From positions 2,100,001 to 2,132,000 of the forward strand of contig NZ_CP011041.1 of NCBI RefSeq assembly GCF_002310835.1: 32,000 nt of DNA, read 5' to 3'. Each line of letters opens with the position of its first letter. Position 1 is the first letter of the stretch. Shown piece by piece: positions 7,729-19,812 of the stretch. Position numbers and translations under genes: made by a program. The stretch comes from Pseudoalteromonas tetraodonis (lineage in GTDB: Bacteria > Pseudomonadota > Gammaproteobacteria > Enterobacterales > Alteromonadaceae). Under the pieces are notes generated by a model. That model was not told the DNA's origin. It was given only the letters and a program-made list of their open reading frames with translations, and made no database searches.

Positions 7729-7792
7729 TTAGTTTAATATAAGCACCACCTAATACACTTTGCAAACTTGGGTTTTAGTTTGGTACTTTAAA

Positions 7793-8345
7793 AAGGTTCA
7801 AGGTTCAAGGTTCAAGGTTCAAGGTTCAAGGTTCAAGGTTCAAGGTTCAAGGTTCAAGGTTCAAGGTTCAAGGTTCAAGGTTCAAGGTTCAAGGTTCAAG
7901 GTTCAAGGTTCAAGGTTCAAGGTTCAAGGTTCAAGGTTCAAGGTTCAAGGTTCAAGGTTCAAGGTTCAAGGTTCAAGGTTCAAGGTTCAAGGTTCAAGGT
8001 TCAAGGTTCAAGGTTCAAGGTTCAAGGTTCAAGGTTCAAGGTTCAAGGTTCAAGGTTCAAGGTTCAAGGTTCAAGGTTCAAGGTTCAAGGTTCAAGGTTC
8101 AAGGTTCAAGGTTCAAGGTTCAAGGTTCAAGGTTCAAGGTTCAAGGTTCAAGGTTCAAGGTTCAAGGTTCAAGGTTCAAGGTTCAAGGTTCAAGGTTCAA
8201 GGTTCAAGGTTCAAGGTTCAAGGTTCAAGGTTCAAGGTTCAAGGTTCAAGGTTCAAGGTTCAAGGTTCAAGGTTCAAGGTTCAAGGTTCAAGGTTCAAGG
8301 TTCAAGGTTCAAGGTTCAAGGTTCAAGGTTCAAGGTTCAAGGTTC
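7793..8345 (+). repeat. Heptanucleotide tandem repeat (AAGGTTC) x 79, perfect (553 bp)
   Basis: Read directly. 553 nt = 79 x 7 with no variant unit. This is confirmed by the uninterrupted QGSRFKV 21-nt periodic translation in the ORF track. It begins about 65 bp upstream of the GTG (77 bp upstream of the ATG) start candidates of the minus-strand SBP-like gene. Confidence 0.97.
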
Positions 8346-8388
8346 AACAAAATAAAAACAAAAGCGCTGCTCAATAACAACGCTTTTA
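8346..8388 (+). other. Conserved tail module of the heptamer arrays (degenerate terminator-like hairpin)
   Basis: AACAAAATAAAAACAAAAGCGCTGCTCAATAACAACGCTTTT aligns with the tail after the bcp array (AACAAGATAAAATAAAAGCGTTGCTCAATGGCAACGCTTTT). By hand that is about 85% identity with one 1-nt indel. The stem here is weakened to AAGCG/CGCTT plus mismatches. Confidence 0.5.
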
Positions 8389-14932: not shown

Positions 14933-16927
14933 TTAATTAATCAACTGTTGTTGTAGTTCATGTATTTCATCGCGTACAGAGGCGGCTTTTTCAAATTCTA
15001 AATCACTGGCGTAGGCATGCATTTTGGTTTCAAGCTGCTTAATTTGCGTGGCAATTTCTTTCGCACTAAGAATTTTTTTAGACTCTTTACGAATAAGCTG
15101 TAAGTTATCTTGTGGTGAAGCATCTTCACCTACATCCATTACATCGAGTATCTTTTTGATCAGTGCTTTAGGCTCAATACCGTGCTTAACATTATAAGCA
15201 TGCTGTATATCGCGGCGTCGCTGGGTTTCATCAATGGCTTTGGCCATCGACTTAGTGATTCTATCACCGTATAAAATAGCACGACCATCAAGGTGGCGCG
15301 CAGCACGGCCTATGGTTTGAATAAGCGAGCGAGCTGAGCGTAAAAAGCCTTCTTTATCGGCATCTAAAATAGCTACTAATGCCACTTCTGGCATATCTAA
15401 ACCTTCACGTAGTAAGTTAATGCCTACTAACACATCAAACACACCGGCACGTAAATCACGAATAATTTCGACCCGCTCTACGGTGTCTATGTCAGAGTGT
15501 AAATAGCGTACTTTTACATTATGTTCGCTTAAATAATCAGTTAAATCCTCAGCCATGCGTTTGGTCAGTGTTGTTACTAACACGCGCTCGCCTTTTTCAA
15601 CACTTTTATAAATTTCTGAGAGTAAGTCATCAACCTGATCGCCAACCGGGCGCACTTCTATTAATGGGTCAAGTAAGCCGGTTGGACGAATAACTTGTTC
15701 AGCAACCTCGCCATTGCTGCGCTCTAATTCAAAATCACCCGGTGTGGCCGACACATAAATAGTTTGCGGTGCAATGGCTTCAAATTCTTCAAAACGCAGT
15801 GGACGGTTATCCATGGCCGAGGGCATTCTAAAACCGTATTCAACGAGGTTTTCTTTACGACTTCTATCGCCTTTATACATAGCGCCAATTTGCGAGACAG
15901 TTACGTGCGATTCATCAATAATCATTAATGCATCGTCGGGTAAATAATCGAGTAATGTTGGCGGTGGATCACCAGGTGTACGCCCCGATAAGTAACGACT
16001 GTAGTTTTCAATGCCTGAGCAATAACCAAGCTCGGTCATCATTTCTATGTCGTATTGGGTACGCTGCGCAATACGTTGCTCTTCAACTAATTTATTAGCG
16101 CTGAGTAATTGTGCCCTGCGCTCTTTAAGCTCAACTTTTATTTTTTCGATGGCTTCGAGTATTTTTTCTCGTGGCGTTACATAGTGAGTTTTAGGGTAAA
16201 TAGTTGCACGCACTATATGTTTTTCAACAGCACCAGTGAGGGGGTCAAAAATACTTAGGCGTTCAACTTCATCATCAAACATTTCTACACGTACTGCATA
16301 GGTATCTGATTCAGCGGGAAATATATCCACCACTTCGCCGCGAACACGATATGTACCACGACTAAAATCAATATCGTTACGGGTGTATTGCAGCTCTGCA
16401 AGGCGGCGCAGCATATCGCGCTGGTCGACTTTTTCGCCCACTTTTAAAAGCAGCATCATTTTCATGTATGAATCAGGATCGCCCAGACCATAAATCGCCG
16501 ATACCGACGCAACGATTATGGTATCGCGACGCTCTAACAGCGCTTTAGTGGCGCTGAGCCGCATTTGCTCAATGTGTTCATTGATGGATGCATCTTTTTC
16601 AATAAAGGTGTCGCTGGCTACCACGTAGGCTTCTGGTTGGTAGTAATCGTAGTAAGATACAAAGTACTCAACTGCATTATGCGGGAAAAATTCTTTCATC
16701 TCGCCGTATAATTGCGCCGCTAAGGTTTTATTGTGCGCCATAATAATAGTGGGGCGATTTAAATCACTAATGATGTTAGCCATCGTGAAGGTTTTTCCCG
16801 TCCCTGTTGCGCCCAATAAGGTTTGATGAGCAAGCCCTGCTTCTAAACCTTCGCACAACTGAGCGATAGCGGTAGGCTGATCCCCAGCGGGTTTAAATTT
16901 TGATTCTAACTGAAAATGATCGCTCAA
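14933..16927 (-). CDS. uvrB: Excinuclease ABC subunit B
   Basis: 664 aa, collinear with E. coli UvrB from residue 1 ([14 protein letters not shown]...[12 protein letters not shown]), with helicase motifs and a C-terminal UVR domain. The start codon is TTG (16927-16925), preceded by AGGAG, and it overlaps the stop of the upstream MATE gene (cATTGAgc). Confidence 0.97.
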
Positions 16928-18303
16928 TGACTACACTCCTGTAATGCTTGACTGCTTAACGCTTCAATTTCTTTCATAAACCACTTATAGGCTACAAGGG
17001 CTGTGAATAAATTACCAATGGCCGCGCCAATAAACAAGCCGATTAAACCTGCCAGTTCATTCCCGATATACGCAAAGGGAACATAAAAAATAAATAACCG
17101 AATTACGCTCAAAACTAAGGCGTTCATGGGTTTGTGTAAAGCGTTAAACGAGGAGTTGGATAAAATGATCACTCCTTGCAAGCCATAACTTAATGGGATG
17201 GTATAAATAAACAGTTTTATGACATCAACAACGGCTTGCTCCTTACCAAATATTTCACTGATGACGCCTGAGAACATAATTAATAAAATATAAATAACAA
17301 ACTGCCATAACATCACAAATTTTAAGGTTCCTAGGTAGGCATCCTTTACGCGAAAAAAATGACTGGCTCCAAAGTTTTGACTAATAAAAGGTGGCAAAGT
17401 CATCGATAATGCTAATACCACCAAACTCGCTATTGATTCTATTCGACTCCCTACTCCAAAAGCAGCCACAGCCTCTGGACCATGATGTGCAACCAATGCT
17501 GTCATTACTGCCATAGCAACCGGTGTTAGCATGTTAGCACCTGCTGCGGGTAAGCCTATTTTTAATATTTTACGAATAGCTCCAATAACCGTTTGCGACC
17601 CTGCTTTTAAACTCAATAAGCGCTTTTTAGCAATTAATAAGTATAAAATAATTGCCACAGCAACTGCCCATGCTATAACACTGGCGATGGCGGCTCCTTT
17701 AATGCCAAACGCAGGAATGGGGCCAAAACCAAAAATAAGTACAGGATCGAGTACCGCATTGATAAGCCCCGCTCCACCCATAATAATACTCGGTGTTTTA
17801 GTATCGCCACTGGCACGCAGTACAGAATTACCAATCATCGGGGTAATTAAAAATACACTGCCTAAAAACCAAATACTGATATATTCATGAATGAGCGGTA
17901 ATACTTGCTCCCCAGCTCCGAGTAAAGTAAAAATAGGATCAATTAATAAATAGCCACACGCAGATAAAACCAACACTAATACCACCGCAATCAACAACGA
18001 TATACTGGCATCAAAACGCGCTTCTTCAATATTGTTACTGCCTAATGCTTTTGCTATTACCGCTGAGGTACCTATGCCTAAACCAATCGCTAAACTAATA
18101 ACGGTAAAAGTGACGGGAAATGTAAAGCTCACTGCAGCAAGCGGCTCAGTACCCAATAAGCTAATGAAAAAAGTATCAACTATGTTGAACATCATTAGGG
18201 TGATCATCCCAAAGATCATCGGAATGGTCATTTTCTTTAATGTAGGCAAGATTGGGGCGGTGAGTAAATCAGGGCGAGTATGTGATTGAGAATGTGCGCG
18301 CAT
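16924..18303 (-). CDS. MATE family efflux transporter
   Basis: 459 aa with about 12 TM segments. The N-terminal [27 protein letters not shown] and repeated-half topology are typical of MATE/NorM-type proteins. Confidence 0.85.
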
Positions 18304-18703
18304 AAAATAAATAAGCCTCTTTTACTGAACGGCATATTTTAAAGCATCCGAGCTGTTCAAGCCATGCTTTATTAAATCTAAACAATTAATTAAACGTTTA
18401 ATCTACAAACTGTTATTTTTATGCCTTTGTAAACAAATTTTGCGCTAACACACTAAAAACCAAATAAAATACATTTATGTAACTTTTGCAACATTTATTT
18501 TTTAGGTTTTGTTGATTTATCACACAGTCAGAGACTGTGTTTTATCGTCACGAAAAATTTTATTTATCGATTAAGTGAGTAACTTAGCTGAATCGTAAGC
18601 TATTGTTTTTAAATGTATAAAAAAAAAGCTTTTAAATACTTGAAATCGTTGTAGCGCCCTACAATGCTGGGGGTGCTGATGTTCTTAAAGTTTCATAAAC
18701 AGA

Positions 18704-18750
18704 GTTATCCACAGAAACCGTGGATAACTCAATCAACCCCACGTTTATAA
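18704..18750. promoter_or_regulatory. DnaA-box cluster: inverted pair of consensus boxes plus a degenerate third box (DARS1-like candidate)
   Basis: TTATCCACA on the + strand (18705-18713) matches the TTATNCACA consensus exactly. TTATCCACG on the - strand (18727-18719) lies 5 nt away. Together they form the palindrome GTTATCCAC-N7-GTGGATAAC. A third box, TTATAAACG on the - strand (18750-18742), has 2 mismatches. The cluster is about 400 bp upstream of the MATE-uvrB operon. Confidence 0.55.
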
Positions 18751-19286
18751 AGGGCTACAACCGAGTGCTAAATTGTCTGATCATTTGGTTTTTTCCGTTA
18801 CCAATATGCAAACAGCATTGTATGCCCCTGTTATGTGTATGAAGGTGATTTTTTCTTAGACTAATATCAGTGAGTAACACACTCAAACAGGTAGCTAACT
18901 CATTGATTGTTTTATTTTTGTACAAAGCATTGCTGCTGCAGTCAAAATTTATATTATGTTTTAGCGCTATTTTAGTTTACGTAACTAATACGCATTTAGT
19001 TCAACCGTTTTAACGTACCAAAAATAAAAAGGAGCCATTTATTTTAAATAAGTTAATTATCGCTTTATAAAAATACAGGAAATAGAACGCGTTTTTGCTA
19101 TTAAAAGCCGTTTTCTTAAATTTTACTCATCACTTTATTAGCTCAAATTACAAACTTCATGCAAATATTACCCTGTTTTTATAAAACAATATCACTGCGC
19201 TTTACTTAAATAGTGTTACAAAACGCGCAGATTGCACATAAAAACAACGAATAGACCTCTTTTTTGAATTTATGATCTTTTATATG

Positions 19287-19315
19287 TTGACACTTTGCTA
19301 TGCGGTCATTAATAT
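19287..19315 (+). promoter_or_regulatory. Sigma-70 promoter of the tRNA-Asn array
   Basis: TTGACA (19287-19292), 17-nt spacer, TAATAT (19310-19315). The upstream flank is AT-rich (UP-like) and a GC-rich discriminator (TTCGCCCCG) follows. The promoter lies about 27 nt before the first tRNA. Confidence 0.6.
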
Positions 19316-19341
19316 TTCGCCCCGTTGAAAGGCAAGACGCT

Positions 19342-19418
19342 TCCCCCTTAGCTCAGTTGGTTAGAGCGACGGACTGTTAATCCGCAGGTCCCCCGTTCGA
19401 GTCGGGGAGGGGGAGCCA
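19342..19418 (+). tRNA. tRNA-Asn (anticodon GUU), copy 1
   Basis: 77-nt cloverleaf folded by hand: acceptor TCCCCCT/AGGGGGA, D arm GCTC-AGTTGGTTA-GAGC, anticodon arm ACGGA-CTGTTAA-TCCGC, T arm CCCCG-TTCGAGT-CGGGG, discriminator G, encoded CCA. It closely resembles E. coli tRNA-Asn. Confidence 0.93.
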
Positions 19419-19439
19419 AGTTTTTCAGCCATAAACGAT

Positions 19440-19516
19440 TCCCCCTTAGCTCAGTTGGTTAGAGCGACGGACTGTTAATCCGCAGGTCCCCCGTTCGAGT
19501 CGGGGAGGGGGAGCCA
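19440..19516 (+). tRNA. tRNA-Asn (GUU), copy 2
   Basis: Identical 77-nt sequence. The spacer to copy 1 is AGTTTTTCAGCCATAAACGAT. Confidence 0.93.
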
Positions 19517-19537
19517 AGTTTTTCAGCCATAAACGAT

Positions 19538-19614
19538 TCCCCCTTAGCTCAGTTGGTTAGAGCGACGGACTGTTAATCCGCAGGTCCCCCGTTCGAGTCG
19601 GGGAGGGGGAGCCA
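19538..19614 (+). tRNA. tRNA-Asn (GUU), copy 3
   Basis: Identical 77-nt sequence. The spacer is identical to the previous one, giving a 98-bp tandem unit. Confidence 0.93.
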
Positions 19615-19635
19615 AGTTTATGTTTATGATGTAGT

Positions 19636-19712
19636 TCCCCCTTAGCTCAGTTGGTTAGAGCGACGGACTGTTAATCCGCAGGTCCCCCGTTCGAGTCGGG
19701 GAGGGGGAGCCA
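19636..19712 (+). tRNA. tRNA-Asn (GUU), copy 4
   Basis: Identical 77-nt sequence with a different 21-nt spacer (AGTTTATGTTTATGATGTAGT). Confidence 0.93.
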
Positions 19713-19735
19713 AATCATGAAAAGTATATTTTAGT

Positions 19736-19812
19736 TCCCCCTTAGCTCAGTTGGTTAGAGCGACGGACTGTTAATCCGCAGGTCCCCCGTTCGAGTCGGG
19801 GAGGGGGAGCCA
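19736..19812 (+). tRNA. tRNA-Asn (GUU), copy 5
   Basis: Identical 77-nt sequence with a 23-nt spacer (AATCATGAAAAGTATATTTTAGT). Confidence 0.93.

Follow-up and report, generated by a model that had tools for sequence, protein, structure and literature searches.

The DARS1 locus of Escherichia coli is a non-coding cluster of DnaA sites that recharges the replication initiator, and Fujimitsu et al. reportedly placed it, in 2009, in the bioD-uvrB intergenic region. Two residues of DnaA, Gln208 and Leu290, are needed for the release of ADP, which takes place as ADP-DnaA oligomerizes on the site. A DARS is further expected to delay initiation when deleted and to stimulate it in vivo when present in extra copies. 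By definition, the core of a DARS has a DnaA box I that faces the opposite way from boxes II and III, with 5 bp between I and II and 3 bp between II and III (PMC6868365; PMC5742627). In E. coli, a head-to-head AAA+ contact between DnaA molecules is followed by ADP release and ATP rebinding (PMC6868365; PMC11724364). DARS1 overlaps with one of the uvrB promoters, uvrBp3, on which DnaA acts as a repressor (PMC6015884), and the element has been reported to be independent of IHF (PMC4245941). The other E. coli locus, DARS2, is found in the rppH/ygdT-mutH intergenic region (Kasho et al. 2014, PMC4245941), and its IHF region adjoins the PciI site mentioned in PMC11724364. DnaA boxes also form the double-box operators of nrdA, dnaA, and rpoH (PMC11317965). 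Outside E. coli, a DARS-like sequence near uvrB of Vibrio cholerae was predicted by Fujimitsu et al. 2009, according to PMC6090056; in the literature that we searched, biochemical or in vivo work on DARS was found for E. coli only.

We have analyzed a 32-kb stretch of Pseudoalteromonas DNA (hereafter, the window, i.e., the whole stretch at its full length) that has DnaA boxes clustered at 18693-18727. Judging from its sequence and position, this cluster is likely to be the Pseudoalteromonas orthologue of E. coli DARS1. It would be a new example of a known element, since DARS-like sequences near uvrB had already been predicted elsewhere, V. cholerae included (PMC6868365 and PMC6090056). New here are the breadth of the conservation, the corrected box III, and an IHF-like site and a distal DnaA box located at fixed distances.

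On the plus strand, positions 18693-18727 read TCATAAACA gag TTATCCACA gaaac CGTGGATAA. Box II (18705-18713, plus strand) is a perfect consensus, TTATCCACA, or TGTGGATAA when read toward uvrB, and is presumed to be the high-affinity nucleating site. Head to head with it is box I (18719-18727, minus strand, TTATCCACG), with one mismatch at position 9. The two are separated by a 5-nt spacer (18714-18718, gaaac on the plus strand) whose length is invariant across loci and whose letters are free, and the inverted repeat at boxes I and II is a near-perfect 25-bp palindrome. Both boxes had been reported in the initial annotation, as a perfect one and an opposed near-perfect one 5 nt away, and both were confirmed; the former is the only perfect DnaA box in the 32 kb and the latter one of 12 one-mismatch matches in the window. 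Since the perfect box is box II, and box III lies 3 nt beyond it, box III has to be the 9-mer at 18693-18701 (plus strand, TCATAAACA), in the same orientation as box II and with 2 mismatches. By a weight matrix made from 19 box III sequences from outside Pseudoalteromonas, it falls in the top 0.023% of the 9-mers of the window, and it is the homologue of TAATACACA in E. coli. Boxes II and III together correspond to the “double DnaA box” seen in E. coli by ChIP-seq (PMC11317965). Single boxes (≤1 mismatch) show no enrichment in the window (13 versus 7.95 expected); it is their arrangement that is informative. For two boxes placed head to head 5 nt apart, with ≤1 mismatch between them, the chance expectation is 0.02 per 32 kb, as calculated from 6.4 Mb of first-order Markov sequence with the composition of the window. 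The 1038-bp spacer that holds the cluster has only two boxes with ≤1 mismatch to TTATCCACA.

A third, weaker box had been annotated at TTATAAACG (18742-18750, minus strand), 14 nt beyond box I. The position is right, but as a meaningful DnaA site this 9-mer had to be discarded. It is on the wrong side, past box I, a place at which DARS elements carry no box, and taken as box III, it would leave the element inverted relative to uvrB, which the actual element is not. Moreover, 9-mers with 2 mismatches number 870 in the window, which is rich in AT (ca. 1 per 37 bp), with 49 in the spacer. In six other Pseudoalteromonas, where the equivalent position reads TTATAAATG, TTATTAACG, TTATAATTG, TTATTCTAT, or TTATTTTTA, the CACA end needed by DnaA drifts, and it is the TTAT end that stays. 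The only part of the site kept in these congeners, GGCCTTTAT, belongs to a weak inverted repeat beside box I, on the side away from uvrB (18735-18757), whose loop holds TTATAAACG. The arms of this repeat (AGGCC/GGCT-type) recur across genera and its loop sequence drifts; the uvrB-proximal arm, GGGCTGG or GGCTTTG, located 7 to 10 nt from box I, recurs from E. coli to Rheinheimera. Besides the weak version in the window, the repeat was found just 5′ of box I in E. coli (L001, ca. 2085-2100) and in loci L002, L003, L016, and L086-L091.

The cluster is located in a 1038-bp spacer without ORFs (18304-19341), in agreement with the ca. 1-kb non-coding region upstream of the uvrB operon described initially. 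The first gene downstream codes for a MATE efflux protein (16924-18303, minus strand) and overlaps by 4 nt uvrB (14933-16927, minus strand), with which it probably forms an operon. This puts the cluster 1.8 kb upstream of uvrB and, measured from box I, 424 bp upstream of the MATE start codon. Downstream of uvrB there are genes for an RlmI-like and then a TrmK-like methyltransferase. On the other side of the spacer, and divergent from MATE-uvrB, are five tandem identical tRNA-Asn(GTT) genes (19342-19812, plus strand), followed by a GGDEF-EAL gene and rnfABCDGE-nth. A promoter scan of the spacer recovered only the consensus-like promoter of the tRNA-Asn genes (19287-19315) and none beside box III. 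The 32-kb window has none of the typical neighbors of oriC (dnaA, dnaN, gidA, and mioC), as had been pointed out before to discard an origin, and no AT-rich unwinding element was found at the cluster. It also lacks mutH; the locus is linked to uvrB and does not have the location of DARS2. At some distance, the ORF at 7760-8377 (205 amino acids) matches the “grass antifreeze beta roll” family PF21300 (E = 1.2e-19), and its product is probably a repeat-rich secreted protein.

The MATE protein shares 87 to 88% identity with those of the Pseudoalteromonas distincta/arctica/fuliginea group, and identical copies are found in one NCBI assembly and in marine metagenome contigs, which assigns the window to Pseudoalteromonas. 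The assembly with the identical protein (L082, 1590-1962) has four copies of tRNA-Asn, located between the GGDEF-EAL gene and the spacer, versus five in the window; either the copy number of the array varies or the array was collapsed in the assembly. In P. prydzensis (L087, 1-2350) and P. lipolytica (L088, 1-2331), small unannotated ORFs replace the array within 3 kb, and this insertion ends ca. 230 to 250 bp short of box I, with the core intact. The translational coupling of MATE and uvrB through the 4-nt overlap recalls the SOS-linked MATE gene of E. coli, dinF. No LexA box (CTGT-N8-ACAG, ≤1 mismatch) was found between the core and the MATE gene, and the sole match to the LexA pattern in the spacer (19063-19078) is on the tRNA side and at chance level.

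The analogy with the region upstream of uvrB had been drawn even though a MATE gene is interposed, and it is reinforced by the finding (tblastn) of the same arrangement, with MATE between the site and uvrB, in Colwellia, Paraglaciecola, Rheinheimera, and Arsukibacterium. Being common to these genera, the MATE insertion is an old feature of that branch and not a local accident. In Vibrio, Photobacterium, Rodentibacter, and the enterics, the core immediately precedes uvrB. One tRNA-Asn gene, transcribed toward the core, lies between the core and uvrB in Aeromonas and Tolumonas, an arrangement that recalls the control by tRNA read-through reported for datA (PMC10950094). A tRNA-Asn(GTT) divergent from uvrB was seen in most of the loci checked (window, L002-L012, L015, L020, L021, L024, L026, L027, L033, L043, L044, L052, and L078), which indicates an old synteny across Gammaproteobacteria. 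It must be older than the core or independent of it, since Pseudomonas has the synteny without the core.

We assessed the conservation of the element by scanning species-representative genomes with the UvrB of the window, which provided 80 gammaproteobacterial uvrB loci with 6-kb flanks, and by searching them for two boxes separated by 5 nt (≤2 mismatches). Exactly one pair was present upstream of uvrB in 21 of the 80 loci (Arsukibacterium, two Rheinheimera, three Aeromonas, Tolumonas, Photobacterium, three Vibrio, Paraglaciecola, two Colwellia, six enterics, and Rodentibacter), a set drawn from Alteromonadales-type, Aeromonadales, Vibrionales, Enterobacterales, and Pasteurellales taxa. The other 59, from Pseudomonas, Legionella, Xanthomonadales, Halomonas, and others, had no upstream pair, and a relaxed scan gave the same result. 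Toward uvrB, the positive loci all have first an imperfect box I, then, after 5 nt, TGTGGATAA, which is invariant, and after another 3 nt TGTKnnTKA. Altogether, the I-5-II-3-III layout of the window was found in 25 other loci upstream of uvrB, including six Pseudoalteromonas and E. coli DARS1, always with box III on the uvrB side and box I on the far side. All of the uvrB-linked loci (26/26) have a box I that is imperfect at position 9, 4, or 1, without any compensating change in box II, which is TGTGGATAA throughout.

Within the genus, the core is kept in all seven Pseudoalteromonas loci, the six additional ones coding for MATE proteins 71 to 87% identical to that of the window; their box III is TGTTTAT[G/T]A, with TGTTCATGA in one locus. 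When the seven spacers were aligned with MAFFT, the mean pairwise identity was 0.90 over the 40 columns of the core versus 0.32 over the whole spacer, and no other block exceeded 0.59. The cluster as initially annotated implied conservation in relatives, and the comparison across uvrB loci bore this out for box I and box II, though not for the third box noted. With the whole spacer as query, blastn retrieved nothing relevant from 5,426 E. coli genomes. The element is too short and its flanks too diverged for blastn, and therefore only a comparison anchored on the motifs works; homology with the E. coli locus rests on motif architecture, fixed offsets, and synteny. Complete I-5-II-3-III cores, with TGTTGAAAA as box III, were also detected just upstream of pyrD in Marinobacter and in an Oleiphilaceae MAG (L026, 12336-12370; L043, 12308-12342; L044, 8244-8278), from a few hundred bp to 4 kb past the 3′ end of uvrB, and a perfect pair in opposed orientation lies 290 bp past uvrB in a Moraxellaceae MAG (L030, 8293-8315). 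DARS-type cores are thus also found outside the enteric/Vibrio/Alteromonas clade, in another gene context.

Set side by side with the E. coli reference (MG1655 bioD-uvrB region, L001), which reads toward uvrB box I TTATCCACT, attcc, box II TGTGGATAA, cca, box III TGTGTATTA, the reverse complement of the window reads box I TTATCCACG, gtttc, box II TGTGGATAA, ctc, box III TGTTTATGA. Both have three boxes with box I opposed, gaps of 5 and 3 bp, a consensus box II, and imperfect boxes I and III. In both, box III is toward uvrB, and the next start codon follows at ca. 420 bp (from box I, 424 bp to MATE in the window and 419 bp to uvrB in E. coli). Both also have a distal DnaA box near +203, and their flanks past box III look alike over a short stretch (TTAGAAAAC for E. 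coli, TTTAAGAAC for the window). On the other hand, a MATE gene separates the site from uvrB in the window, the neighbor on the other side is the tRNA-Asn array instead of bioD, and box III has 2 mismatches versus 1 in E. coli. An IHF-like site at +119 has 1 mismatch in the window, 0 in several other genera, and 2 in E. coli (+121), and such a two-mismatch remnant fits the reported IHF independence of E. coli DARS1. On these sequence data, the initial proposal of a DARS1-type site is supported by architecture, spacing, quality of the boxes, orientation, and synteny.

DARS2 of E. coli (L092; box I TTATTCACC, ttttc, box II TGTGGATAG, agt, box III TGTGAAGAA) has the same core, together with an IHF site ca. 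100 to 120 bp from box I on the same strand and a further box near +200 to +211; in E. coli, the IHF region is at +93/+109 and the consensus box at +211. It differs in its mutH locus, in having weaker core boxes, and in the opposite orientation of the distal box. DARS2 also needs Fis (FBS2-3) in addition to IHF (IBS1-2), whereas a crude pattern search of the window and its relatives gave no consistently placed Fis-type site. The Vibrio loci share the core, upstream of uvrB and divergent from tRNA-Asn, but they lack the MATE gene, and no IHF-like site was found at +119 in the Vibrio loci sampled. The double-box operators resemble boxes III/II, head to tail and 3 nt apart, without the opposed box at 5 bp that defines a DARS. 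With datA and oriC, the likeness is limited to clusters of DnaA boxes with an IHF site, and numbers, orientations, and spacings of the boxes are different.

To look at the extended architecture, the loci were lined up at the first base of box I, in the direction of uvrB, and all offsets are counted from there. Next to box III on the uvrB side is a flank (18653-18692, minus strand) that reads, toward uvrB, AACTTTAAGAAC ... TAGGGCGCT and that matches in position the ca. 50-bp regulatory flank of DARS1 and the uvrBp3 region of E. coli. Within it, AAnTTTAAGAAC is nearly invariant in the seven Pseudoalteromonas and resembles gagTTAGAAAAC of E. coli and TGTAAGAAC of Colwellia at the same offset. The flank as a whole is strongly conserved in Pseudoalteromonas. 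The window and E. coli have in common, at matching offsets, the short motifs TTnAnnAAC (+38) and TAnnnGGC (ca. +65), but the overall similarity is so low that homology with the stimulatory flank of E. coli would be only tentative. Past box III there is a promoter candidate, TTTAAG-17-CATTGT, which would be weak judging from the consensus; E. coli has TTAGAA-18-GAATAC at matching offsets.

Two IHF-consensus-like sites were found on the minus strand of the window with the pattern WATCAANNNNTTR (≤1 mismatch). The one at +82 (18633-18645, TTTCAAGTATTTA, 1 mismatch) is present in four of the seven Pseudoalteromonas (window, L086, L087, and L088), with 0 mismatches in L087. The one at +119 (18596-18608, AAACAATAGCTTA, 1 mismatch, with an A/T tract preceding it) is far more widespread; a site at +119 to +122, on the same strand and also preceded by an A/T tract, appears in 16 of 26 loci, representing ca. 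7 of 9 families, against a background of 0.0077 per locus (P ~5e-14 counted by family). These include five of the seven Pseudoalteromonas, together with Rheinheimera, Aeromonas, Tolumonas, Paraglaciecola, Colwellia, Kosakonia, Klebsiella, and Rodentibacter. A DARS1 is characterized by a high-affinity core that needs neither IHF nor Fis, and the conserved site at +119 hints at something different here. Farther on, at +203, there is a distal DnaA box (18516-18524, plus strand, TTTATCACA), with 1 mismatch to TTWTNCACA and the orientation of boxes II/III. Of the 26 loci, 16 likewise have a box at +201 to +207. The six other Pseudoalteromonas have it in a perfect form (TTTTACACA or TTTTGCACA), and it occurs also in E. 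coli, Citrobacter, Aeromonas, Tolumonas, Vibrio, and Rodentibacter. The loci with these extended offsets are the window, L003, L004-L006, L008, L009, L011, L013, L018, L021, and L086-L091. Overlapping the distal box in the window there is a perfect 8-bp inverted repeat (18522-18540, ACACAGTC aga GACTGTGT) followed by TTTTAT, which is not conserved in the other Pseudoalteromonas spacers.

The IHF-like site is roughly midway between the core and the distal box, ca. 90 to 100 bp from each, and the distal box could be brought back onto the core by a sharp bend at that point. A tentative and rather doubtful extension of the DARS1 assignment is that the DARS1 lineage was ancestrally a looped, DARS2-like module of ca. 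210 bp, made up of the core, an IHF bend ca. 85 bp past box III, and a distal box ca. 70 bp farther on. DARS1 and DARS2 would then be paralogues over their whole length, reactivation would be gated by IHF in Pseudoalteromonas and most of its relatives, and the IHF-independent 101-bp DARS1 of E. coli would be a decayed derivative. No description of such an extended DARS1 architecture was found in the literature searched, Fujimitsu et al. 2009 lying outside it.

Several other functions could be considered for the cluster. It might be only a transcriptional operator, at which DnaA represses or times the distal promoter of MATE-uvrB, or affects the tRNA-Asn promoter, without nucleotide exchange. 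The boxes of E. coli do repress uvrBp3 (PMC6015884), pairs of DnaA boxes 2 to 3 nt apart are the usual form of a DnaA operator in ChIP-seq (PMC11317965), a further box is found toward the gene (+203 in the window), and the distance to the start codon is conserved. However, an operator needs only the box II/III pair, and yet the opposed box I is kept at exactly 5 bp in every lineage. Box I also stays imperfect in all of them, a feature that in E. coli is tied to ADP release (PMC6868365), and the identity of the first downstream gene, be it uvrB, MATE, or a tRNA (Aeromonas), makes no difference to the retention of the cluster. A perfect box II next to an imperfect box I in every uvrB-linked locus examined agrees with an ordered assembly and would be difficult to account for at a plain repressor site. 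A purely transcriptional role seems unlikely to us.

The perfect high-affinity box, its cooperative neighbors, and the IHF-like site at a fixed distance would also suit a sink for DnaA or a datA-like site, acting by titration or by IHF-aided ATP hydrolysis and not by nucleotide exchange, and deletion of DARS1 in E. coli does lower the DNA-bound fraction of DnaA (PMC12371093). Nevertheless, I-5-II-3-III is the signature of a DARS, common to both E. coli DARS loci, and the synteny is with DARS1 and not with datA, which makes this function very improbable. Even less credible is that the inverted repeat acts as an RNA hairpin or intrinsic terminator on the minus strand, or as the operator of another dimeric regulator of the MATE pump. 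A terminator scan does give a 13-bp stem, closed by a 3-nt loop and followed by a T-rich tail (18730-18702, minus strand), in keeping with the near-perfect 25-bp palindrome, but across 16 distinct sequences no compensatory change was seen in any of the nine stem pairs. Box I varies alone, at positions 1, 4, 5, and 9, and breaks the pairing, and the letters of the spacer are free to vary. This is the pattern of a protein-binding site and not of an RNA or DNA stem, and the terminator reading was rejected. The arms are invariant DnaA-box sequence and it is the “loop” that varies, nothing upstream on the minus strand requires termination, and there was no Rfam match, a permissive threshold giving only the tRNAs and sub-threshold noise over them. 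The palindrome is found as well in taxa without the MATE gene, which rules out a pump-specific operator.

We thus keep to the DARS1 orthologue, and its mode of action is proposed here by analogy with E. coli. DnaA would bind first to the perfect box II; a second molecule would be recruited to the imperfect box I, head to head at 5 bp, and a third one to the weak box III, head to tail at 3 bp. The head-to-head AAA+ contact of ADP-DnaA across the 5-bp gap would then loosen the ADP, and the apo-DnaA would leave and rebind ATP, restoring initiation-competent DnaA. Release of ADP at the cluster is what the E. coli precedent predicts. From motifs and offsets, we infer that DnaA would occupy the site and that the IHF-like site and distal box may have roles in it; the bound DnaA probably would also repress a weak distal promoter of MATE-uvrB starting just past box III, as it does at uvrBp3 in E. 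coli.

The spacing and orientation of the DARS1 core have been kept to the base from the enterics to Pseudoalteromonas, despite the insertion of MATE and the complete turnover of the spacer around it, and this retention argues that the architecture for nucleotide exchange, and not just the repression of uvrB by DnaA, is under selection across the clade. The set of loci, in which box I is always imperfect and box II always perfect, provides a natural test set, and TTATCCACN-N5-TGTGGATAA-N3-TGTK beside uvrB or tRNA-Asn can serve as a marker for the annotation of DARS1. The shared IHF-like site and distal box suggest that the minimal DARS1 of E. coli may under-represent the ancestral element, and such features at fixed distances raise a testable idea about the relationship between DARS1 and DARS2. 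If the extended module were real, DnaA reactivation in Pseudoalteromonas would be tied to the cell cycle or to the growth phase.
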